Source: a virus
Taxonomy: Duplodnaviria; Heunggongvirae; Uroviricota; Caudoviricetes
Direction: 5' to 3' (one strand)
Length of the DNA stretch: 64,000 nt
Virus record (IMG/VR): IMGVR_UViG_3300033067_000531
The position numbers were made by a program, and so were the translations under genes. Positions 9,036 to 29,760 of this stretch are shown here, piece by piece. Each line of letters opens with the position of its first letter. Position 1 is the first letter of the stretch. The notes under the pieces were generated by a model. It saw nothing but the letters and a program-made list of their open reading frames with translations. It was not told the origin of the DNA and did no database searches.

Positions 9036-11119
9036 GTCTTAGCGTATACGTTAACAATAATTGCACCACTATCAAAAGGATCAACAGTAATAATTCTATT
9101 AAAGGATGATGATAATAACGATGTTGTTGGTGTTGATGTAATAGTTATCTGACCTAATGGGTTATCAATTGATATCGGTGAGAACGCATTTAATGTAACT
9201 GTACCTGACGCATAATCCACTGTACCAACATTGTTGTTGAATACAGTCTTAACGTTATCTGTATTATTGTAATATGTTCTCAGTGTACCAAAACGACCTT
9301 CTAGATTCACAATTAATGAACCACCTTGACCAACATCACCCTCTTTGGTTGTCACAACAGCAATAGCACTTGTGTATCCTGTTCCTGGTTTTGTTACAAT
9401 AACATTCTTAATTGTACCAGAACCACTCAACACAGCATATGCCTCAGCACCTGTGCCATCACCCCTGATGGTGATTGTAGGTGGTGTTGTGTAGTTGTAA
9501 CCTGGGTTAACAATCGTGATAGACTCCACACCACCCGTAGTGGATGGAACTTCTTCCACATACACACTATCAATTGTGTTGGAGTAATTAACAGGATTTC
9601 TATACTGTAATGCTGGGTAACTACTTACACCACTCTGGAACATACCTTTCTTCAATGGAACACCAAATTTTAGATTGTATGTTGTTGGTGTACTGAAGTT
9701 TGGATAAAATTTCTTTTGCAATTTAACATCAATCTCATTGGTGATGATTGCTTGATTGACATTCTTAACCACTTCATTGAAATTGGTCAAAGAGAACACA
9801 GAGTTGAAAGTGTTTAGTGACTGATTTGCATATGAAGAAATGGCTGACTTGATTGCAGATTGTAATTGATTAGGTGACAGATTTGTTTTCTTAGGATCAT
9901 ACCATACGTTTGCAGTTAATTGCAGATAGGTGTAATCTGGATCAACGAAAGTTGGTACCACGGTCATCATGGAAATTGGTTTAATAACATCTCGTGTCAA
10001 CTTTTCTTTCTGTACCTGTGTCAATGAGTATGCATTGGAAGGTTTAATAGAAATCATCACTTGACCATATACAGGAGGATCATTTTCTTCACCGCCCCAT
10101 ACGTTAACAGCATCAAACGAATATCCTAGATTATTATTTTGAATGGCTGTGATGTAATCTTCTTTGGACACCGCACGTTTTTGTGCAGAGAATGCCTTAG
10201 GTGCATGGAAACGAATAGAATCAATTGATTCCTTCAAGGCACCTTGTGATGCTTCGTTGATTGGATTGACTGTGATATTAGAATAACTATCAATAGAATC
10301 CATCATCACAAAACTATTGGCACCGTGTGCTGCTGTACCTGATGAAGTGATGTACGTTAGGCGCACAATATTACCATCAGTCAATTGTTTACCTAAAACA
10401 CCATCACCGAAATAAATCTCATAATTACCGTCAATACCTTCTTGTAGGAAGTAAACAGTTGAACTACCAGATAGAGACAAGTAATCATCCGCAGGTGTAT
10501 ACACTTCATATTGTGTGTTAGATGAAGACCTTTGTACCAACACCTGAAGTGTTGTGGTATCAATATTAGGTTCATTAATCACAATCTTCGATGAAGGGTT
10601 TGTGTTGTTGTTTACCACCAAACTTGTTGACGCTGGAATACCCTGTTTTATGGTTACACCAGAAAATGTTGCACGGAATGTACTAAAATTTGTATCGGCG
10701 GTGTATGTGTCTGTGACCACAAACGTGTAGTTGACACCATCAACAGATTCAGACATTAATTTTGAGTATTTTGGTAAAACCAACTGTGGAGTGGATGCCA
10801 AAACATTATTAACCACAATATCAACTGTCGCAGTTGGTGCAATTACAGATTTTGGTGTGTAACCTAGTGATTTAGCTAACGAAACAACAGAACTTCTTTG
10901 AATGGCAGTATCCAAAAACATTTCATTAGCGGCCATGTTTGTATAAAATGCTTGGTATTGTGTATTGTATGCCAACACATCAAGCAATGTCGAAAGTGCA
11001 GAACCTTCGTAATTGTAATCCCTCAGTGTGTCTTGAGATTTTAGATAATTCTTTAGATTGTTTTTGATACTATCAAAATCTAAATCTGTGATTTGGATAT
11101 TAGAATTAGCGCCTGCCAT
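9032..11119 (-). CDS. 6: Baseplate wedge protein gp6
   Basis: N-terminal 'DYNYEGSALSTLLDVLAYNTQYQ' matches remembered T4 gp6 'DYDFEGSRLNVLCDLLAYNTLY'; 695 aa vs 660 aa in T4; follows gp25. Confidence 0.75.
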   Translation of the reverse strand: MAGANSNIQITDLDFDSIKNNLKNYLKSQDTLRDYNYEGSALSTLLDVLAYNTQYQAFYTNMAANEMFLDTAIQRSSVVSLAKSLGYTPKSVIAPTATVDIVVNNVLASTPQLVLPKYSKLMSESVDGVNYTFVVTDTYTADTNFSTFRATFSGVTIKQGIPASTSLVVNNNTNPSSKIVINEPNIDTTTLQVLVQRSSSNTQYEVYTPADDYLSLSGSSTVYFLQEGIDGNYEIYFGDGVLGKQLTDGNIVRLTYITSSGTAAHGANSFVMMDSIDSYSNITVNPINEASQGALKESIDSIRFHAPKAFSAQKRAVSKEDYITAIQNNNLGYSFDAVNVWGGEENDPPVYGQVMISIKPSNAYSLTQVQKEKLTRDVIKPISMMTVVPTFVDPDYTYLQLTANVWYDPKKTNLSPNQLQSAIKSAISSYANQSLNTFNSVFSLTNFNEVVKNVNQAIITNEIDVKLQKKFYPNFSTPTTYNLKFGVPLKKGMFQSGVSSYPALQYRNPVNYSNTIDSVYVEEVPSTTGGVESITIVNPGYNYTTPPTITIRGDGTGAEAYAVLSGSGTIKNVIVTKPGTGYTSAIAVVTTKEGDVGQGGSLIVNLEGRFGTLRTYYNNTDNVKTVFNNNVGTVDYASGTVTLNAFSPISIDNPLGQITITSTPTTSLLSSSFNRIITVDPFDSGAIIVNVYAKT

Positions 11120-22660: not shown

Positions 22661-22691
22661 AAAACCCCGCTTTATGCGGGGTTCTTTTTTA
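22661..22691. terminator. Bidirectional rho-independent terminator between convergent genes
   Basis: AAAAACCCCGCTTTATGCGGGGTTCTTTTTT: GC stem CCCCGC/GCGGGG flanked by an A-run and a T-run. Confidence 0.75.
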
Positions 22692-23573
22692 GTCGTCTGC
22701 CAACTTTGAGAAGTAGGCCATGTCATCATCTTCATCAGCTGAAGGTTCAAACGGTGCATCCTCAGCAACTGGTTTTGCTTTTGGTGCAGATGCCTTTGCT
22801 TGTTCAACAGTAGTCTTAGGTACATCAGCTGCACCCAATACCTTGTCAAGGCGTTTCTTCAAATCATCGTAAGATTTGAATTCTTTATCAGAAACCAATT
22901 CTTGCAATGAGTGTTCAGACTTCCAAACCTTTTCTAGTTTGTCGTCATCCTCGAACAATGCCGAAGCAGATTCGAATTCAGACTTGTCGTAGTTTTGGTA
23001 ACCATCAACTTTACGGATACGCAACTTGAAGTTTGCACCTTCCCACAAATCGAATGGGTTGATTGGTGTTTCATCTTCGAAAGCTGGGTTCATTGCTTCG
23101 TTAATCTTGTCAAAGATTTTCTTACCGAACTTAAACAACTTAACTTGTCCTTCGTTTTCTGGATGTTTTGGATCCGAAACGATGTACACGTTTGCAATGT
23201 AGTTGAGTTTACGTTTTTGTTTACGCACAACTTCTTTGTTGGCTTCAACACCAGAGTTCCACAATTTGTTATTGTGTTCACATACTGGACATTGAGCATT
23301 CTTTGTGGTCAAACAGTTATCAATCAACCAGCCACCAGGACCCTGGAAACCGTGTGAGAAAACTTTAACCCAAGGAAGACCATCATCACCGTCAGCTGCT
23401 GGTGCAGGCAAGAAACGGATAGTAGCCATGCCGTTACCAGCCTTGTCTACTTCTGGTCGCCAGAATTTGTCATCGGATTTGCCACCTTCGGACGAAGCGT
23501 TGAGAGCTTCAATGGCTTTTGTGAGTTTGTCCAGATTGCCTGAACCACGTTTTAGTTTAGCGAAATCGCTCAT
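22689..23573 (-). CDS. 32: Single-stranded DNA-binding protein gp32
   Basis: 'IRFLP', 'GFQGPGGW', Zn ligands 'CPVCEH', 'KFGKKIFDKI', 'WEGANFKLR', acidic tail 'DEDDDMAYF' all match T4 gp32. Confidence 0.85.
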   Translation of the reverse strand: MSDFAKLKRGSGNLDKLTKAIEALNASSEGGKSDDKFWRPEVDKAGNGMATIRFLPAPAADGDDGLPWVKVFSHGFQGPGGWLIDNCLTTKNAQCPVCEHNNKLWNSGVEANKEVVRKQKRKLNYIANVYIVSDPKHPENEGQVKLFKFGKKIFDKINEAMNPAFEDETPINPFDLWEGANFKLRIRKVDGYQNYDKSEFESASALFEDDDKLEKVWKSEHSLQELVSDKEFKSYDDLKKRLDKVLGAADVPKTTVEQAKASAPKAKPVAEDAPFEPSADEDDDMAYFSKLADD

Positions 23574-23642
23574 AGTATTTTCCTTTATAAACGGAGTATT
23601 AACGGAGTGTTACGGATTATCCACATATTTCATTATATGGAT

Positions 23643-24137
23643 TTATTTAGGCGTCCTGAACAAGGTTTCTAGTTCAATAATGGTAGACTTTGCATCTTTG
23701 TGATGAATAGCAATACCACCCGCATTACGCCAATCTTCAATGACACTGTAAGTATCATCAATGATTACTGCATCAGGTTGAGCATACTTATACTTGTGTC
23801 GTTTGCCTGGAACAAAGATAGGATCAGGCCAATAAATGTCATGGTTACCCAACCATTCTTTCTTCTGTTCACTGATTGTATCATATACTTCTTCATAAGC
23901 GGTAGATGATAGAATCTGTTTTGGTTCATCCAAAATGGTCAGATATGCTCTGAGGATGAAAAAGTCTTTCATGGGTTCTAACGTAGCGAATTGCTTTGTC
24001 AGAATGAAATCGGAGAAGTTGGTACGGAACTTAGACCTACGCACTTGTTCTGGCACTTCACCATATAGTTCTACATAACGTTTCTCGAAGTCACATAGAA
24101 CACCGTCCATGTCAACATAAATCTTACTGATTTCCAT
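23643..24137 (-). CDS. HAD-family 5'(3')-deoxyribonucleotidase-like protein
   Basis: N-terminal 'IYVDMDGVLCDF' HAD motif I (DxDGVL); 164 aa. Confidence 0.55.
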   Translation of the reverse strand: MEISKIYVDMDGVLCDFEKRYVELYGEVPEQVRRSKFRTNFSDFILTKQFATLEPMKDFFILRAYLTILDEPKQILSSTAYEEVYDTISEQKKEWLGNHDIYWPDPIFVPGKRHKYKYAQPDAVIIDDTYSVIEDWRNAGGIAIHHKDAKSTIIELETLFRTPK

Positions 24138-24738
24138 AGTGTTCTTTCACAATAGCCTTTAATTTGGCCTTATCATAATTTACAAAAGGTGTATACTTTT
24201 CCAGTTTCAGTTTCCAATTTGGCCAGATAATATCGTCTTTGATTTTCTTTGACCACATTGGGAAGAAACCCATCAAATCATTCAGTATAACCACAGTCTC
24301 AATCATAATGTTACGTTGCATCATTTCCTCTAGTAACCTAGGGTAATGGTCGTCAACAACACTAATCATGTCCTTAGCGGCATACTTGTCGAATAGGTAA
24401 ATTATATCTTGTTCGAACTGGTATGTCAAGCGTTGAATTCTTGTTTGCCACTTGGTATAGTTCTGTTCACCTTCAAGACCAGATATATCACCGATCCACT
24501 TGATATCGGATTCTAGGAAGTTAGCAATATAAAACGAACGTAAATCATCTAAATTGTACTTCCTGGAGAGTTTATAGAATGAGTACTTTGCCTTATTTTT
24601 GGCAAAGCTATCCTTACTCACATTCGTCTTGCCGTTGTACTTAAAGTAATCGTAAGATGGTGATGTGAAATGTAATCTCAATGCATTATATAAAGCGAAG
24701 GCAGAAAATCCACTGCCTTCTTCAAGTTGAAAACTCAT
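24124..24738 (-). CDS. 59: Helicase loader gp59
   Basis: 'KYSFYKLSRKYNLDDLRSFYIANFLESDIKWIGDIS' matches T4 gp59 'KYFFQKLSEKYKLKELALIFISNLVANQDAWIGDIS'; adjacent to gp32 as in T4. Confidence 0.7.
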   Translation of the reverse strand: MSFQLEEGSGFSAFALYNALRLHFTSPSYDYFKYNGKTNVSKDSFAKNKAKYSFYKLSRKYNLDDLRSFYIANFLESDIKWIGDISGLEGEQNYTKWQTRIQRLTYQFEQDIIYLFDKYAAKDMISVVDDHYPRLLEEMMQRNIMIETVVILNDLMGFFPMWSKKIKDDIIWPNWKLKLEKYTPFVNYDKAKLKAIVKEHYGNQ

Positions 24739-24956
24739 ACTGGTAATCTAGCGGTCTTCTTTAATAGATTTGCTTCTTGTGCTTCTTCACGAAGTTTTGA
24801 TTTAAGTGCGGCCGAAATAAGTGTTGACGCTACATCAACTTCAAGGCCTGTTTGTTCACAGTGATGAATGATTGCTTCTAGTCGAGTCATGCTCTCTTTG
24901 GTTGCAATTTCATTAATCAAATCACTGAATTCACTAATTTCATTTTTTGTAGGCAT
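24735..24956 (-). CDS. Small acidic protein, possibly gp33-like late transcription co-activator
   Basis: 73 aa; position next to gp59 as in T4 (59-33-32 region); no motif confirmation. Confidence 0.3.
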   Translation of the reverse strand: MPTKNEISEFSDLINEIATKESMTRLEAIIHHCEQTGLEVDVASTLISAALKSKLREEAQEANLLKKTARLPV

Positions 24957-25432
24957 TAACGTGTATAAAATAGATGGTTACCGATACGTGCAACATACTT
25001 CAAGTTCCAACCAGGATTAACCTTGTTGTTGTGATAGTACATTGATTTTGTTTTGTGAATTGTATCATGTAGTTTGTGTTCTGTCAAGGCCTTCCTTGCC
25101 ACAATCATACATTCTTCCCATGCATATTTGTTGTTGACGGCTTTAACCTTTTCACCAACCCATGAGAATTGATATGTGTTACCAGTCTTTTGGTATACCA
25201 CTTCACACACAGTCTTTGGATACAATGGACTTTGTGTTCTATTCATTGTTACTTGCGCTACGGCCAGTTTTCCCTCAAATGGTTCTGAGGCTGCTTCGTA
25301 GTAAATGTTTCTTGCCATACATTCAATCTGTTGACTTAGATTGATTGAAACATGTTGTTTTTCAGTCAATGGCTCTTGGTGAGAAATCACCGGAAACAAT
25401 GCGAATAGTGTAATTAGGATGAATTTCTTCAT
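24956..25432 (-). CDS. Secreted cell-wall hydrolase, SleB/CwlJ (Hydrolase_2) family
   Basis: Signal peptide MKKFILITLFALFPVIS; 'ARNIYYEAASEPFEGKLAVAQVTMNR' is the Hydrolase_2 signature. Confidence 0.65.
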   Translation of the reverse strand: MKKFILITLFALFPVISHQEPLTEKQHVSINLSQQIECMARNIYYEAASEPFEGKLAVAQVTMNRTQSPLYPKTVCEVVYQKTGNTYQFSWVGEKVKAVNNKYAWEECMIVARKALTEHKLHDTIHKTKSMYYHNNKVNPGWNLKYVARIGNHLFYTR

Positions 25433-25444
25433 TACTTCTCCTTT

Positions 25445-25619
25445 AAATTGTGTTTGGTGCTTCTGTTACGAGGTGCACCAAACGAAACCCTAGTCAGCGC
25501 TTAGGCTGCCAATGCGTAACTTTCGTCATTTGCATTTATTTTGATTTGCTTGATTTACGGTCATCGCCTACCGTGTTGCCGTCTCCACTATCTACCCCTG
25601 TCGAAACCATGGCATCCCC
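25445..25619 (-). ncRNA. ssrA: Two-piece tmRNA (ssrA), coding piece: 5' acceptor strand GGGGAUG, D-like UUUCGACAGGGG, tag frame, 3' hairpin
   Basis: Minus-strand GGGGATGCCATGGTTTCGACAGGGG resembles the canonical tmRNA 5' end GGGGCUGAUUCUGGAUUCGACGGG. About 85 nt downstream is GCA AAT GAC GAA AGT TAC GCA TTG GCA GCC TAA = ANDESYALAA. It ends in a GTTTGGTGC...GCACCAAAC hairpin. Confidence 0.7.
25501..25533 (-). other. tmRNA tag reading frame (resume codon GCA to TAA): ANDESYALAA
   Basis: Direct translation; matches proteobacterial tag consensus (E. coli ANDENYALAA). Confidence 0.7.
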
Positions 25620-25707
25620 ATCAAAAACATACTAAGGTGAAATGAACTTACTAAGTAGAGGTTCCGGCTTACCAATCCCGAACTTTTTACAGTTTTAAGT
25701 ATGTTTT

Positions 25708-25790
25708 TGGTGGAGATGGGGGGAGTCGAACCCCCGTCCAGAAGTCCTTCGCTTTGAAGGGATTACAACAATTTCTTTAATTATACAACA
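25708..25790 (-). ncRNA. ssrA: Two-piece tmRNA (ssrA), acceptor piece: T-arm GGGGG-UUCGACU-CCCCC, 3' acceptor strand CAUCUCC, discriminator A, encoded CCA
   Basis: Minus strand ...GGACGGGGGTTCGACTCCCCCCATCTCCACCA. The 3' strand pairs with GGGGAUG of the coding piece, giving G3:U70. There is no D-arm, no anticodon arm and no 5' acceptor strand upstream, so this is not a tRNA. It lies upstream of the coding piece, as in permuted ssrA genes. Confidence 0.7.
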
Positions 25791-25794
25791 AAAC

Positions 25795-26475
25795 CTATCG
25801 CTTGGCAATAGAATCGTGGTAAAATTTTATATAGTCGAATAAAGTATTTATGTGGTCTTCGGTTTTCTCGACAAATAACAAGGGTTCCTCATCATCCACC
25901 GCCATGATAATGACAATCTGTTCGATAGGTTGGCCAACCAGTTCCTCATACATCATCGCATATGCAACACACTGAGCAAAGTAATTGTCAATGTCCTCAC
26001 GTTTCTTGATACGTTTGGAAGTCTTAAAGTCAATTACAGATAACTTACCATCAAACTCACCAATACAATCAACACGACCCGCCATACCAATCTTAACTGA
26101 CCACAAGGCCTGTTCTTGGAAATGTATGTTGTTAATACGATTCAATAAAGGTTTGATAGACTTAAACATCTGTAATGCATCCGGCATAACCTTCATCAGG
26201 TACTTTGGATCATTATTCAGATATTTTTCACATAAGGTGTGTAGGTTGGTACCACGACCAGAGGCAATACGTGATATCTTGTTGGCTTCTTCTTCACCTA
26301 CACGTTTACGCCATTTCATAATGGCCTCTTTACCTTTCGCACCAATAACAGTGGTGACCGAAGGCAACTTAACGCCGTCTGGTGTTACATAGTATCGTTT
26401 GCCATCAGGAAACGTTTGCGATTTTAAATCTTTCAAATCACACGGCGGACAATAATTAAAAATCATATTATTCAA
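25795..26475 (-). CDS. PD-(D/E)xK nuclease (Cas4/YqaJ-like putative exonuclease)
   Basis: 'GRVDCIGEFDGKLSVIDFKTSK' (D...D/ExK) and 'YFAQCVAYAMMYEE' (QxxxY) motifs. Confidence 0.6.
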   Translation of the reverse strand: MNNMIFNYCPPCDLKDLKSQTFPDGKRYYVTPDGVKLPSVTTVIGAKGKEAIMKWRKRVGEEEANKISRIASGRGTNLHTLCEKYLNNDPKYLMKVMPDALQMFKSIKPLLNRINNIHFQEQALWSVKIGMAGRVDCIGEFDGKLSVIDFKTSKRIKKREDIDNYFAQCVAYAMMYEELVGQPIEQIVIIMAVDDEEPLLFVEKTEDHINTLFDYIKFYHDSIAKR

Positions 26476-27103
26476 AAGTTAGGTGAAAAACAAAACACAA
26501 TCTAGTTTCTTTAGAGTTGTGTTCTCCTACAGCATGCCACAATTCTGGTGTATGTATGACCAAATCACCACTTCTAGGTTTAACATAGAACTTATCTTCT
26601 TCCAGAAACGAACTATGTTTTAATCCTGTTTGACCATTGCGTATGAAGATTAAATCGGATCCATTTTCTGGATTATTCACATAGAAAATGGCATTCAAGT
26701 CTGTGTGACCGTTATAATCTTTGGTTTTGTCGTACTGAAAACCAACATGATTATGACACAAACCCTGAGATTTGTCAAACATTTGATTCATCCAGGATTT
26801 CTTGACATTTACCCTCGTCACATCCTCACCAAACATTTCCTTGTATGCCAATAACGATTGGTTCGTTATCCACTGCATCAGTGGTTGTGCATCAGGTATG
26901 TTTGCTGGTCCTAGTAAAGGATTGTTTTCGGTGGTTTCACCTTGACCGTATTGTGAATCCCAATCACCACCACGTGTGCGGTTCAATACTTCAGGTAATG
27001 AGAAGATTCTTTCGGTTGTTTTTCGCAGTTGTTTATTTTTGTATAGTGTTTCATCATTACACTTGGTAACAAAAATTTTACCGTTAAACACTTCCAGTAT
27101 CAT
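26468..27103 (-). CDS. 2OG-Fe(II) oxygenase superfamily protein
   Basis: 211 aa; HxD...H-type jelly-roll signature region 'GDLVIHTPELWHAVGE'; overlapping junctions with neighbours. Confidence 0.5.
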   Translation of the reverse strand: MILEVFNGKIFVTKCNDETLYKNKQLRKTTERIFSLPEVLNRTRGGDWDSQYGQGETTENNPLLGPANIPDAQPLMQWITNQSLLAYKEMFGEDVTRVNVKKSWMNQMFDKSQGLCHNHVGFQYDKTKDYNGHTDLNAIFYVNNPENGSDLIFIRNGQTGLKHSSFLEEDKFYVKPRSGDLVIHTPELWHAVGEHNSKETRLCFVFHLTFE

Positions 27104-27707
27104 TTCTCACTCGTATATTCATAACAATACAAATACGATTCTCATCACTCAAATTTGGTTCCGTTGAATGTATGACGTAGTTTGGAAACAAGATTAACAT
27201 TCCAGGTTTAGGTTTAATCTCATAGAATGTTCTACCTGGTCGACCCCATTTATCCGCAGCAAGGTGTTTATCGTGCCATGGAATATCCACATGACCACGC
27301 GGATCACATAACATGATACTACCACTATTCTCCGGAATAGTAACATAGAACACACCAACCAATTCAGCACCAAAGTGTGTATGTGGTGTGTCCCACTCAT
27401 TAGGATACAATACAGATTGTTTTGTTTTGATTGTTGGAGTAAATTCTGGCCAGCCAGAGTCCTTTTTCACAACTTCAACAGCCTCAAGAATCTTCTCTTT
27501 GAGTTTACTGATTCCATAACCATTAAAATCTAAAAAGTCATGTTGATAAATGTCAAACTTATCACCATCAATCTGTTTTTGTTTATCTATAAATCTACTG
27601 AAATTAGAACCATCCATTTCAATAGACTTAACGAGATACTTGTCATCTTCACTCAAGTCGAATGTCCACACAGGAGTGGCAAACATCTGTTTTAAATCAT
27701 ATTTCAT
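27084..27707 (-). CDS. 2OG-Fe(II) oxygenase superfamily protein (second, divergent copy)
   Basis: 207 aa; 'PHTHFGAELVGVFYV...GHVDIPWHDKH...YVIHSTEPN' His/Asp-His triad pattern. Confidence 0.5.
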   Translation of the reverse strand: MKYDLKQMFATPVWTFDLSEDDKYLVKSIEMDGSNFSRFIDKQKQIDGDKFDIYQHDFLDFNGYGISKLKEKILEAVEVVKKDSGWPEFTPTIKTKQSVLYPNEWDTPHTHFGAELVGVFYVTIPENSGSIMLCDPRGHVDIPWHDKHLAADKWGRPGRTFYEIKPKPGMLILFPNYVIHSTEPNLSDENRICIVMNIRVRNDTGSV

Positions 27708-28315
27708 CGTATAATGTTTATGGCAGTTTCAACGTCTTTTAAGATTCTATCGTGTTGTGTGATATCCTCACACTCTTGCATAGTTACAAGGTGACTGTAA
27801 TCAATATCAATAATTTCATCACTGTCTTGTACTTGTTTTGATACACCAACAATGTCAATATTGATACTCAACATACCTTCGTTTTGGATAGACCTAAAGA
27901 TATTAGCATGAACCACTCGTTCGAGTTTATTCAAACGTCTTACCAAGACTTGACCAATTGGACTAAACTTAACAGGTTTCAAAGAGAAACCCATAAGTGG
28001 TAAACTGTCCATCTTATGTGGACAGATAAAAAATACAGGTACTCTTTGATGCAAGGTTGTATCAGCCAACTTAGAAATTTCTTCCGCTGGTGGCAAACTA
28101 CCCTTCGAATAGACTTCAAAAGGAACTATCGCAGTGGTTGTTACCGATTCACCTTTTGAATTGCGTACGGTAATATACATCAATGATGGTTCGGTGACCA
28201 GATTATACTCTGTCAAGTGTTGTAACATCCATTCTTCTGGACGTAGAACCCTGATGTTGAGAATATCGGTTCTTTCTTTTGCTTTAGATAAGAATTGTTT
28301 TAGTTCTGGATTCAT
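27704..28315 (-). CDS. Hypothetical protein (203 aa) in rSAM/oxygenase operon
   Basis: ORF track; 4-nt overlaps at both ends (translational coupling). Confidence 0.5.
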   Translation of the reverse strand: MNPELKQFLSKAKERTDILNIRVLRPEEWMLQHLTEYNLVTEPSLMYITVRNSKGESVTTTAIVPFEVYSKGSLPPAEEISKLADTTLHQRVPVFFICPHKMDSLPLMGFSLKPVKFSPIGQVLVRRLNKLERVVHANIFRSIQNEGMLSINIDIVGVSKQVQDSDEIIDIDYSHLVTMQECEDITQHDRILKDVETAINIIR

Positions 28316-29760
28316 TTTTGTTCTACTCTAGATTGCCCATAAACATCTACATCATCAATCTTACCTACAATTTCAGTCACAACCTTTATGGGGATGATTT
28401 TAGTTTTCTGTTTTTCTTTGTGTTCGTAAGTTGTACCCCAAATGTCAACTCGGTCAAGTGGCAAATCACCACCCTGAATCAACATAGGAATATAACCTGT
28501 CATCTTTTCCATACTCAAAGCAAACAATGATACATTATCTGAATATGCTGTGTCACAAGTCTTTTCCCAATATTCACCTTCGAGGTACATACAAGAACCC
28601 TTACATAGGTGTAATACCGGACAAGTAGAACATTCCTTTCTGTTCTTCCAGTGTGTCACAGATTTGATTGCAACATTATCATAGTCGTCTAGATTACCAC
28701 CCAAATGAGATTCACCGTTCTTGGAGTTCTCTTTGACTGACACGTTTTGACAAGTGATAACGTTACCTTTAAGGTCAATAGCAATCACATTCTCCATGTC
28801 CATACCACACTTCTGTCCAAGATATTTGGACTCATTATGTGATAAGACACTATCTGTAAAACTATTAATCTTATTCAAGATAGCATCAAAATTAATTTGG
28901 CCATCAGTTGAACGAATGTCATTGAACGCTGTTTTTCTATATTCAAAATGTTCTTGGTATGTACCTAAAGAATTATTGATACCATCAGCATCATATGCAT
29001 CAACCATCGTACCTTCACCGATGGAAACAGTTTCATCACCAGTAAATTCTTTGAACCACTCATACACATCTTTACGACTTGTATTTTGTCTGTTCATCAT
29101 TACATTGAAACTGATTCGACCTTGTGGGTGCATAGAGTTATAGAACTCCATCAGAATCTTCTTTTTGGATTCGTCAACAAAAGGATCAGGACCACGGACA
29201 TGTTGATTAGGACCATCATGTGAGATACCAACAGAAAAACCCATGTAGTACAACCATGCACAGATATCTTTGGTCAACAACGAACCATTGGTCACCATAC
29301 TAAATTGTGGTTTGTTCTTCCAATGGTCGAACTTTTCCACGATGGCTTCTGTCAAAGGCTTCAGAGTCTTCCAATAGACAAGAGGTTCACCACCCCAGAA
29401 TTCAATCTTCAAACCTTTTTGTTCATCAAAGTTTAATACATCCAGTTTTTGTAGGAATGATTCGATATCTTTCTTACTTGTTTCTGGTGGACGTTCGACA
29501 AATTTCTGTGAACAATAATCACAAGAATAGTTGCAAGATAGACCAAGTTGAATCTTTAGAATTTGAATATCTTTAGACTTCTTTAGTGGATGATTTTTAT
29601 CGAAGGCACGGGTTGGTTCTCCTGAATCAACATAACGTTGTTCAACAGGACTCTCAAAGATATAGCCTTCTTCATCACTCAAAACATTCGACTCATTATC
29701 GTAGTAAAATGTCTTAGAGTCTCCATCAATCATTCTCAAAGCATTAATAGTAAATTTCAT
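28312..29760 (-). CDS. Radical SAM enzyme with C-terminal SPASM/twitch auxiliary-cluster domain
   Basis: 'CNYSCDYC' CxxxCxxC rSAM motif; C-terminal 'CSTCPVLHLCKGSC' plus upstream Cys ('GQKCGMD', 'ITCQN') typical of SPASM maturases. Confidence 0.7.
   Translation of the reverse strand: MKFTINALRMIDGDSKTFYYDNESNVLSDEEGYIFESPVEQRYVDSGEPTRAFDKNHPLKKSKDIQILKIQLGLSCNYSCDYCSQKFVERPPETSKKDIESFLQKLDVLNFDEQKGLKIEFWGGEPLVYWKTLKPLTEAIVEKFDHWKNKPQFSMVTNGSLLTKDICAWLYYMGFSVGISHDGPNQHVRGPDPFVDESKKKILMEFYNSMHPQGRISFNVMMNRQNTSRKDVYEWFKEFTGDETVSIGEGTMVDAYDADGINNSLGTYQEHFEYRKTAFNDIRSTDGQINFDAILNKINSFTDSVLSHNESKYLGQKCGMDMENVIAIDLKGNVITCQNVSVKENSKNGESHLGGNLDDYDNVAIKSVTHWKNRKECSTCPVLHLCKGSCMYLEGEYWEKTCDTAYSDNVSLFALSMEKMTGYIPMLIQGGDLPLDRVDIWGTTYEHKEKQKTKIIPIKVVTEIVGKIDDVDVYGQSRVEQK

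Follow-up and report, generated by a model that had tools for sequence, protein, structure and literature searches.

A two-piece tmRNA gene of betaproteobacterial type carried by a T4-like phage

The gap between the exonuclease and hydrolase genes

The DNA analysed here, a stretch of 64,000 nucleotides (nt) from IMG/VR record IMGVR_UViG_3300033067_000531 that we call the window, belongs to a T4-like myovirus with a lytic T4-like backbone. On its minus strand a PD-(D/E)XK exonuclease gene is followed by a gap and then by the gene for a SleB-type cell-wall hydrolase. An earlier note, made from the sequence alone, had named both neighbours, correctly as judged by their domain and family matches (Table 1), and had placed in the gap a phage-encoded transfer-messenger RNA (tmRNA) in two pieces, circularly permuted and with the tag ANDESYALAA. 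We conclude that the gap very probably holds just such a gene: genuine, selectively maintained in the phage, and of the betaproteobacterial structural type, a lineage that the earlier note had not named.

Two independent detectors, both of them checks that the earlier note had proposed, recognised the gene, and covariation in related phages, described below, agrees with them. ARAGORN returned a "tmRNA*" (permuted) call at 25410-25800 with the tag ANDESYALAA. In Rfam, the locus matched RF01850 (beta_tmRNA) at 160.9 bits (E=9e-50; full-length match, 1-331; gathering score 84) and RF04321 (tmRNA_permuted) at 154.4 bits (E=1e-30; gathering score 47), and RF01850 beat the alpha and cyano models in clan competition. 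The match of the locus to tmRNA is thus far beyond chance. The terminal hairpin of RF01850 is absent from the window gene, model positions ~300-328 being deleted in the alignment; this touches the 3' end of the gene and not the functional core of the RNA. A permissive Rfam scan of the locus (E up to 1) found no further element and no glutamine riboswitch. On the plus strand a 61-codon open reading frame (ORF) covers 25450-25635; it runs antisense to the tmRNA, and we dismissed it.

The sequence elements that the earlier note had reported, namely the T-arm, the acceptor strand, the CCA, the start of the coding piece and the tag, were all found on the minus strand (Table 1). The acceptor piece comes first and the coding piece second, in agreement with the ARAGORN call: the CCA ends at 25708 and the coding piece opens with GGGG from 25619. 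The spacer between them, estimated at about 88 nt, measures exactly 88 nt (25707-25620), and the resume codon, placed about 85 nt beyond the start of the coding piece, lies 86 nt further on, as GCA at 25533-25531 preceded by CAAAAUAAAU. The tRNA-like domain is complete in sequence and in the RNAalifold prediction, with T-arm, 7-base-pair (bp) acceptor stem, G3.U70, discriminator A and 3' CCA, and the third acceptor pair, which the earlier note had singled out, is G.U in 19 of 19 aligned sequences. There is no anticodon arm; the D-loop analogue (CCAUGGUUUCGAC, 25612-25600) aligns to the RF01850 model consensus uaCUGGUUUCGAC and is invariant across related loci except at three positions.

On one point the earlier reading has to be amended. 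It ran the first piece over 25708-25790, and the tRNA-like 3' end of that piece stands, whereas its 5' limit does not: because 25785-25780 is the -10 hexamer of a sigma-70-type promoter, the RNA probably starts near 25773. This predicted start is three bases ahead of the first base of the Rfam permuted model. We also noted a terminator-like hairpin (UCUAUUGCCAAGCGAUAGG then UUUUGUUGUA) at 25794-25812, at the end of the exonuclease gene, which overlaps the -35 hexamer of the tmRNA promoter.

Table 1. Features of the tmRNA gene, in order along the minus strand, followed by neighbouring genes in the window
Feature	Position	Strand	Details and evidence
Sigma-70-type promoter	25780..25808	-	-35 TTGCCA 25808-25803, 17-nt spacer, -10 TATAAT 25785-25780; 11/12 consensus matches
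Acceptor piece, ~66 nt	25708..25773	-	Sequence, Rfam alignment, RNAalifold; 5' end inferred from promoter
Outer inter-piece helix, 5' strand	25770-25765	-	In acceptor piece; RNAalifold
Local hairpin CCUUC/GAAGG	25760-25746	-	In acceptor piece
P2a 5' strand ACUUCUG	25745-25739	-	In acceptor piece; covariation
T-arm	25735-25719	-	GGGGG 25735-25731, loop UUCGACU 25730-25724, CCCCC 25723-25719
Acceptor 3' strand CAUCUCC	25718-25712	-	Followed by discriminator A 25711 and CCA 25710-25708
Intervening sequence, 88 nt	25620..25707	-	Ends UUUUGAU directly before mature G25619
Coding piece, ~168 nt	25452..25619	-	Starts GGGGAUGCCAUGGUUUCGACAGGGG at 25619; sequence, Rfam, RNAalifold, covariation
Acceptor 5' strand GGGGAUG	25619-25613	-	In coding piece
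D-loop analogue CCAUGGUUUCGA	25612-25601	-	In coding piece
P2a 3' strand CAGGGGU	25600-25594	-	In coding piece
Outer helix, 3' strand GCAACA	25579-25574	-	In coding piece
Pre-tag hairpin CGGU/ACCG	25573-25558	-	In coding piece; followed by A-rich stretch, then tag
Tag frame GCA AAT GAC GAA AGT TAC GCA TTG GCA GCC TAA	25501..25533	-	ARAGORN
Stop-codon helix	25489..25505	-	CCUA 25505-25502 / UAGG 25492-25489; RNAalifold
3' hairpin	25452..25483	-	9-bp stem GUUUGGUGC/GCACCAAAC, 14-nt loop ACCUCGUAACAGAA; stem covaries
PD-(D/E)XK exonuclease (upstream neighbour)	25795..26475	-	phrog_298 E=1e-75; PF12705
SleB-type cell-wall hydrolase (downstream neighbour)	24956..25432	-	PF07486 86.9 bits; endolysin PHROGs
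gp33 late-transcription coactivator	24735-24956	-	Context 22689..24956 defining slot; PF16805 at 60.9 bits
gp59 helicase loader	24124-24738	-	Slot context; phrog_269 and Pfam on identical contigs among context evidence
NT5C nucleotidase	23643-24137	-	PF06941
gp32 single-stranded DNA binding protein	22689-23573	-	tblastn

Related loci and conservation of the tag

We searched IMG/VR for exact matches to the 25 nt of the T-arm and acceptor and obtained 59 loci. A full or end-truncated permuted tmRNA of beta type is present in 28 of these; RF01850 was the best model for 27 of the 28, all above threshold at 87-169 bits, and the gene at L036, cut by the end of its contig, reached RF04321 only. Four further loci are standard tmRNAs, and 26 of the 59 are merely 3' fragments of 26-39 nt, of the kind left at integration sites. 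With the window included there are 24 distinct sequences, and 19 sequences, with the intervening sequence removed, made up the alignment used for RNAalifold.

Among the contigs that bear a tmRNA, the usual order is exonuclease, tmRNA, 0-3 kilobases (kb) of variable genes, SleB-like hydrolase, gp33, gp59 and gp32. The flanking proteins of the related loci are 26-85% identical to those of the window, and the survival of one gene order around such diverged proteins indicates that the tmRNA has been passed down within a diverse clade of uncultured T4-like phages. In all 27 related loci with an ARAGORN tag call, an uninterrupted tag frame of 10-11 codons carries the pattern AN(D/E)xx(F/Y)ALAA; the tags of two related loci end in YRIAA, and synonymous changes occur at the Asn, Asp and Leu codons. 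A promoter with at least 11 of 12 consensus matches, a 17-nt spacer and a distance of 42-45 nt to the T-arm precedes the gene in 15 of the 24 distinct sequences.

These comparisons bear on whether the gene might be a non-functional remnant of host DNA, either a captured ssrA fragment or the attachment (att) site of a temperate element. The 3' end of tmRNA is commonly an integration site, as the 26 short fragments among the IMG/VR matches illustrate. However, the gene in the window is complete, its relatives have kept one position while the flanking proteins diverged to 26-50% identity, and it has undergone compensatory substitutions; moreover, there is no integrase nearby, the backbone is a lytic T4-like one, and the relatives are not one recent clone. 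We strongly disfavour this origin and consider it highly improbable.

Compensatory changes in the paired regions

From the 19 aligned sequences, RNAalifold predicted the T-arm, the 7-bp acceptor stem, an outer helix between the two pieces and the 3' hairpin, which corresponds to the penultimate hairpin of RF01850. Double compensatory changes were found in five of the six pairs of the outer inter-piece helix (for example UGUUG/CAACA, UGCUG/CAGCA and GAUAG/CUAUC) and in four of the five tested pairs of the 3' hairpin stem. The stop-codon helix CCUA/UAGG is neither supported nor contradicted by covariation, because it is invariant in the 19 sequences.

P2a, a second helix between the pieces, and the pre-tag hairpin were mis-registered by MAFFT; for this reason we located them by their constant distance from invariant anchors and then counted pairs. 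Across these two elements 100% of cells were paired, and both sides changed in six pairs. P2a occurs in variants such as ACUUCUG/CAGGGGU, UGUUCUG/CAGGGCA and UAUUCUG/CAGGGUA, with double changes in two of its seven pairs and the remainder invariant. The 4-bp pre-tag hairpin (25573-25558) takes six different stems and covaries perfectly, and RF01850 likewise models only a hairpin at this place. The covariation score for P2a and the pre-tag hairpin was 0.407, compared with 0.126 in shuffles (0 of 500 reached the observed value) and at most 0.063 when the partners were slid by 1-3 columns. The earlier note had called for a search for a helix between the two pieces, and covariation supports two.

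In the window, the first 10 nt of the intervening sequence (25707-25698) pair with 25633-25624 and so extend the acceptor stem. By RNAfold, the ends of the intervening sequence pair over 10-14 bp in 24 of 24 sequences, the sequence of the helix differing in nearly every one, and a ...UUUGAU leader stands ahead of G+1 in all 24. The intervening sequence varies from 56 to 142 nt across the relatives, and its interior is not conserved. A closing helix that is kept around an unconserved interior is the behaviour expected of a spacer removed by processing.

Because the helices keep pairing through compensatory changes, the tmRNA gene is under selection, both for pairing and for an open tag frame, and on these comparative grounds it is almost certainly functional.

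Several features of the aligned genes deserve mention in their own right. In the loop of the 3' hairpin (25461-25474) the core CCUCGUAACAGAA is invariant in the 19 aligned sequences while the stem covaries freely, and CUAGGGUUU at 25484-25492 is almost invariant in the same sequences; the Rfam beta model has a similar consensus. Such constancy likely reflects a pseudoknot or a protein-binding site; inspection by eye gave no consistent pseudoknot partner for the loop, in columns whose invariance yields no covariation. In L006, L022, L015 and L001/L055 a 20-column insertion (ACGGGAAUGUGAAACCCGUAGGAUUGGGG...ACUCGGUCG) between P2 and the tag replaces the simple pre-tag hairpin, and may be a PK1-like pseudoknot kept in one sub-lineage. 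The 96-nt intervening sequence of L033 (~10758-10853) contains motifs resembling the D-arm and T-arm of a tRNA (UAGCUCAGUUG..., GGUUCGAGCCCAAC), with no tRNA call by ARAGORN. Upstream of the intact gene in L051, an extra 5' end of a coding piece and a second acceptor-like copy (1534-1568 and 1843-1881) appear to be left over from a tandem duplication or from cassette replacement.

Evidence against a functional two-piece tmRNA

A number of results speak against the interpretation of the gap as a functional two-piece tmRNA gene. Folding of single sequences, including the joint fold of the two pieces that the earlier note had suggested, did not recover the inter-piece helices, and the minimum free energy (MFE) structure instead pairs the 5' region of the acceptor piece with the tag region. 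The folding z-score of the precursor is only -1.85, and the gain from co-folding is that of shuffles. P2a appears in the unconstrained MFE structure of 4 of 24 sequences, with enforcement of the helix costing only 0-4.8 kcal/mol. Since thermodynamic folding was uninformative, the structural claim rests on covariation and not on energy. Inspection by eye found no consistent partner for a second PK1 stem. A recognisable sigma-70 promoter is missing in 9 of the 24 sequences, and 3' of the coding piece there is no terminator-like site or U-tract to mark its end. A weak test, by tblastn with an E. coli query, found no SmpB-like ORF in the 64-kb window (best E=5.5). Among 185,579 bacterial species representatives, a genome scan with a 36-nt sequence (TTCTGGAC plus T-arm and acceptor) found no permuted copy. 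Finally, our search of the literature turned up no experiment on the function of any phage tmRNA.

The lack of a terminator bears on a different reading of the locus, in which the main selected role lies in cis: as a structured and processed 5' leader, the RNA would determine where the transcript of the early operon (SleB-like, gp33, gp59 and gp32 genes) begins, how stable it is or when it is made, with tmRNA activity secondary or lost. In keeping with such a role, no terminator separates the tmRNA from the SleB-like gene, whose ribosome-binding site (RBS) and ATG lie at 25441-25430, and the RBS of the next gene follows the 3' hairpin by ~10 nt both in the window and in many relatives; we think that the SleB-type hydrolase gene is probably co-transcribed with the tmRNA. 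The tmRNA of the phage Melnitz has likewise been described as sharing an operon with gp33 and as joined to a riboswitch (PMC9004378). A leader function, however, leaves the conserved tag frame, G3.U70, the ACCA end and the inter-piece helices unexplained, and no riboswitch or other Rfam element is present at the window locus. We regard it as very unlikely that this is what the gene is chiefly selected for.

Comparison with known tmRNAs

The two-piece tmRNA of betaproteobacteria was reportedly described by Sharkady and Williams in 2004 (cited in PMC9004378). The window gene resembles this type, as captured by RF01850, in its permuted order, in a tRNA-like domain with a UGGUUUCGAC D-loop analogue, in its P2 architecture and pre-tag hairpin, in a tag of the ANDxxxALAA type, and in a post-tag hairpin with a CCUxGUxAC-type loop. 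It differs in being phage-encoded, in lacking the final hairpin of the model, and in its intervening sequence, which is 56-142 nt in the relatives and occupies 69 nt in the window alignment as against 8 in the model.

Two-piece tmRNAs in phages, including T4-like marine phages, form a category that has already been published, and the gene described here is a well-supported further example. The earlier note had implied that such an RNA would be new to T4-like phages; it had in fact been reported for Melnitz, HTVC008M and Mosig (PMC9004378). In Melnitz, a T4-like phage of OM43, the two-piece tmRNA follows an early promoter and immediately precedes gp33, with which it is described as forming one operon, and is fused to a glutamine riboswitch (Buchholz et al. 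2022, PMC9004378). The same study found two-piece tmRNAs in 17 of 47 contigs related to Melnitz, and, from 402 of 18,146 phage genomes, 53 two-piece forms among 133 unique phage tmRNA structures. Besides Melnitz and the pelagimyophages, among them HTVC008M and Mosig, it names about 50 further phages; its Table S1 includes those two pelagimyophages, Pseudomonas phage SM1, Stenotrophomonas phages, the phiCbK group and others, along with ARAGORN "Permuted" calls for several cyanomyophages, which are that paper's calls only (PMC9004378). The functions that it proposes, rescue of hijacked ribosomes and tagging of host proteins, are those that the earlier note had also put forward.

The copies in HTVC008M and Melnitz, like that in the window, are permuted tmRNAs of T4-like marine myophages, situated between the exonuclease and gp33, near gp59 and gp32, with an early promoter upstream. 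Unlike the window gene, they are of the alphaproteobacterial type, and the Melnitz copy is reported with a glutamine riboswitch, which the window does not have. The HTVC008M copy scores 83.8 bits against RF01849, has the tag ANFNEYALAA and occupies the same slot between exonuclease and gp33; blastn found no similarity between the window copy and copies of the HTVC008M/Melnitz type. We note that the HTVC008M tmRNA (L129 6104-6462; NC_020484 ~145103-145461) is unannotated in RefSeq, where the hypothetical coding sequences gp194 and gp195 partly overlap it.

A beta-type permuted tmRNA is also found in Pseudomonas phage SM1 (Samunavirus), with 111.2 bits for RF01850, 118.6 bits for RF04321 and an acceptor piece 81-82% identical to that of the window. 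SM1 differs in being a 93-kb siphovirus of a gammaproteobacterium, with another genomic context and a 12-residue tag, ANDTSFDVRLAA. Its tmRNA (L060 1234-1625, KU245542) is unannotated in the record, and the related Pseudomonas phages PaMx31, UF_RH6, PA_L9 and FBPa45 match the same acceptor piece. When the locus was compared by blastn with 50,697 genomes of isolate phages, the only matches were of 44-80 nt in the acceptor piece, mainly in Pseudomonas phages, and no close isolate was found.

A 2014 survey of phage tmRNAs recorded one-piece forms only (PMC4131195). The tmRNAs of the mycobacteriophages Bxz1 and relatives, of Bacillus phage G and of mycobacteriophage DS6A (PMC4131195) share with the window gene a phage-borne ssrA and the absence of any reported phage SmpB. 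In contrast to the window gene, the Bxz1-type and phage G tmRNAs have the standard, non-permuted form, carry actinobacterial or firmicute tag types and belong to unrelated phage lineages, while DS6A has a tRNA-like domain only, without a tag frame (PMC4131195).

The insertion site

Among the products encoded in the window are rIIA, gp59, gp32, gp33, components of the baseplate and tail, a CobS-like ATPase, a radical-SAM protein and two 2OG-Fe(II) oxygenases. No isolate has a gp32 more than ~57% identical to that of the window, and the best matches are to cyanomyophages; the window exonuclease shares 42% identity with gp193, the HTVC008M exonuclease, whose gene likewise stands ahead of the tmRNA in that phage. 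Upstream of the exonuclease, at 26468-29760, are the two oxygenase genes, in tandem, and the gene for the radical-SAM protein, which has 482 residues and is 56-70% identical in five related loci with a full-length match.

We considered whether a slot between the exonuclease and gp33 might be universal, and rejected this on the evidence of two phages: in the cyanomyophage S-CAM1 the exonuclease gene directly adjoins gp33 and no RNA intervenes, and in Stenotrophomonas phage Mendera there is no adjacent gap at the corresponding place. The abutting genes of S-CAM1 indicate that the tmRNA is an insertion at this junction, common to heterotroph-infecting lineages and filled by differing tmRNA lineages.

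Mosaic structure and assembly

The segments of the window tmRNA gene (25452-25773) have conflicting affinities. The flanking proteins of the window are closest to those of L046, L050 and L038, at 78-82% identity. The P2 strands and pre-tag hairpin are only 34-47% identical to those of these same three loci, and 94-100% identical to those of L033, L012, L029, L021 and L042, whose flanking proteins are 36-53% identical. In its tag segment the window agrees completely (100%) with L028, L046 and L050, whereas for the intervening sequence the homologues lie in L009 (76%) and L046 (65%), two loci with the other P2 type. The gene is thus a patchwork, in which both P2 strands were replaced together, and the breakpoints of the mosaic fall at the invariant tRNA-like blocks.

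An assembly artefact, with a bacterial tmRNA mis-joined into a phage contig, has also to be weighed. The locus is prone to assembly problems: the same phage is represented by six independent metagenome assemblies (L132-L137), and every one of them stops within the tmRNA gene, at positions 25499, 25499, 25575, 25598, 25614 and 25741 of the window, probably because the conserved tRNA-like domain of co-occurring relatives breaks the assembly graphs there. Three of the six (L133, L134 and L137) nevertheless continue from the tmRNA into the same phage genes downstream, with 98.8-99.7% identity, and most of the 28 related loci place the tmRNA between the same phage genes, so that we see almost no likelihood of a mis-join. 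The 3' junction of the mosaic is confirmed by these three assemblies, and support for the upstream junction comes from the window assembly alone.

What is new here is a beta-type tmRNA in this T4-like clade, the occupation of one slot by tmRNAs of different lineages, and recombination in patches inside the gene. A broader proposal, which we make tentatively and with some doubt, is that the exonuclease-to-gp33 junction of heterotroph-infecting T4-like (Kyanoviridae-like) phages is a dedicated tmRNA slot with exchangeable contents, alpha-type in phages of SAR11 and beta-type in the clade of the window, and that, within the clade, co-infecting phages that are only distantly related exchange sub-modules (the tag segment, the intervening sequence, or both P2 strands as a unit) across the invariant tRNA-like blocks.

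Host and proposed mode of action

Phage and host tmRNA lineages have been reported to match, with Melnitz as the reported exception (PMC9004378); by this reasoning the host of the window phage is probably a bacterium with a beta-type two-piece tmRNA. In the bacterial genome scan, 67 GTDB genome loci (L061-L127) share the 36-nt sequence, and BLAST found neither a permuted gene nor the flanking genes of the window at any of them. The six sampled GTDB loci with an ARAGORN tmRNA call are all standard one-piece genes, mostly of Chloroflexota (Chloroflexia, Thermomicrobiales). The tags of these Chloroflexota tmRNAs, for example ANNNARVQPRLALAA, are unrelated to that of the window.

We infer the transcription, processing, charging, use of host SmpB and benefit to the phage as follows. 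Host RNA polymerase would transcribe the tmRNA early from the near-consensus sigma-70 promoter, probably at the 5' end of an early transcript that runs on through the SleB-like, gp33 and gp59 genes. The precursor would fold with its acceptor stem extended by the helix between the two ends of the 88-nt intervening sequence, and host tRNA-processing enzymes would remove this spacer, with RNase P cutting 5' of G25619 and trimming proceeding back to CCA25708; the expectation of spacer removal draws on what is known of two-piece tmRNA processing (PMC11915505). An acceptor piece of ~66 nt and a coding piece of ~168 nt would then be held together by the 7-bp acceptor stem and the two covarying inter-piece helices. 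Alanine charging would proceed via G3.U70 and the discriminator A, and, with no SmpB in the window, the RNA would have to rely on host SmpB, entering stalled ribosomes with it and EF-Tu. Translation would resume at GCA25533 and add ANDESYALAA, releasing the ribosome and marking the truncated protein for host proteases. The phage would gain extra capacity for ribosome rescue while host mRNAs are destroyed or defence nucleases cut RNAs.

The dependence on host SmpB could also be turned the other way, with the phage RNA acting as an antagonist or re-programmer of host trans-translation: it would out-compete the host tmRNA for SmpB and ribosomes, blocking quality control or defence-linked signalling, or would divert tagging so that proteolysis feeds the phage. 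A molecule resembling the DS6A tmRNA, which has only the tRNA-like domain, is inhibitory to tmRNA in E. coli, perhaps because it titrates SmpB (PMC4131195; PMC11915505), and selective tagging of host proteins was raised as a possibility in the Melnitz paper (PMC9004378). The strong early promoter and the lack of SmpB in the window would suit such a role. Against it, the 27 related loci with an ARAGORN tag call have all kept the full tag frame with its canonical ALAA end, together with the resume context and the stop codon; a pure decoy would not need these features, and DS6A has lost them. Because the tag is so strictly conserved, a decoy or re-tagging role fits poorly, and we judge it improbable in comparison with ribosome rescue by a phage-supplied tmRNA.

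Significance

The window tmRNA does not overturn current understanding. Standard tools find such genes, yet they often go unannotated, as in HTVC008M and SM1, and correct flagging improves phage annotation. The 24 distinct sequences, with rich covariation and a conserved promoter and processing helix, make a good comparative set for the structure of two-piece tmRNAs.

For the biology of these phages, the gene sharpens the question of what lytic phages gain from a ribosome-rescue RNA of their own without SmpB. One slot with alpha- or beta-type tmRNAs, together with mosaicism within the gene, suggests an exchange of cassettes matched to the host. If the cassette does track the tmRNA/SmpB lineage of the host, then the phage RNA must match the host SmpB or ribosome to work, and the type of tmRNA would be a culture-free marker that could help to assign hosts to uncultured T4-like phages.

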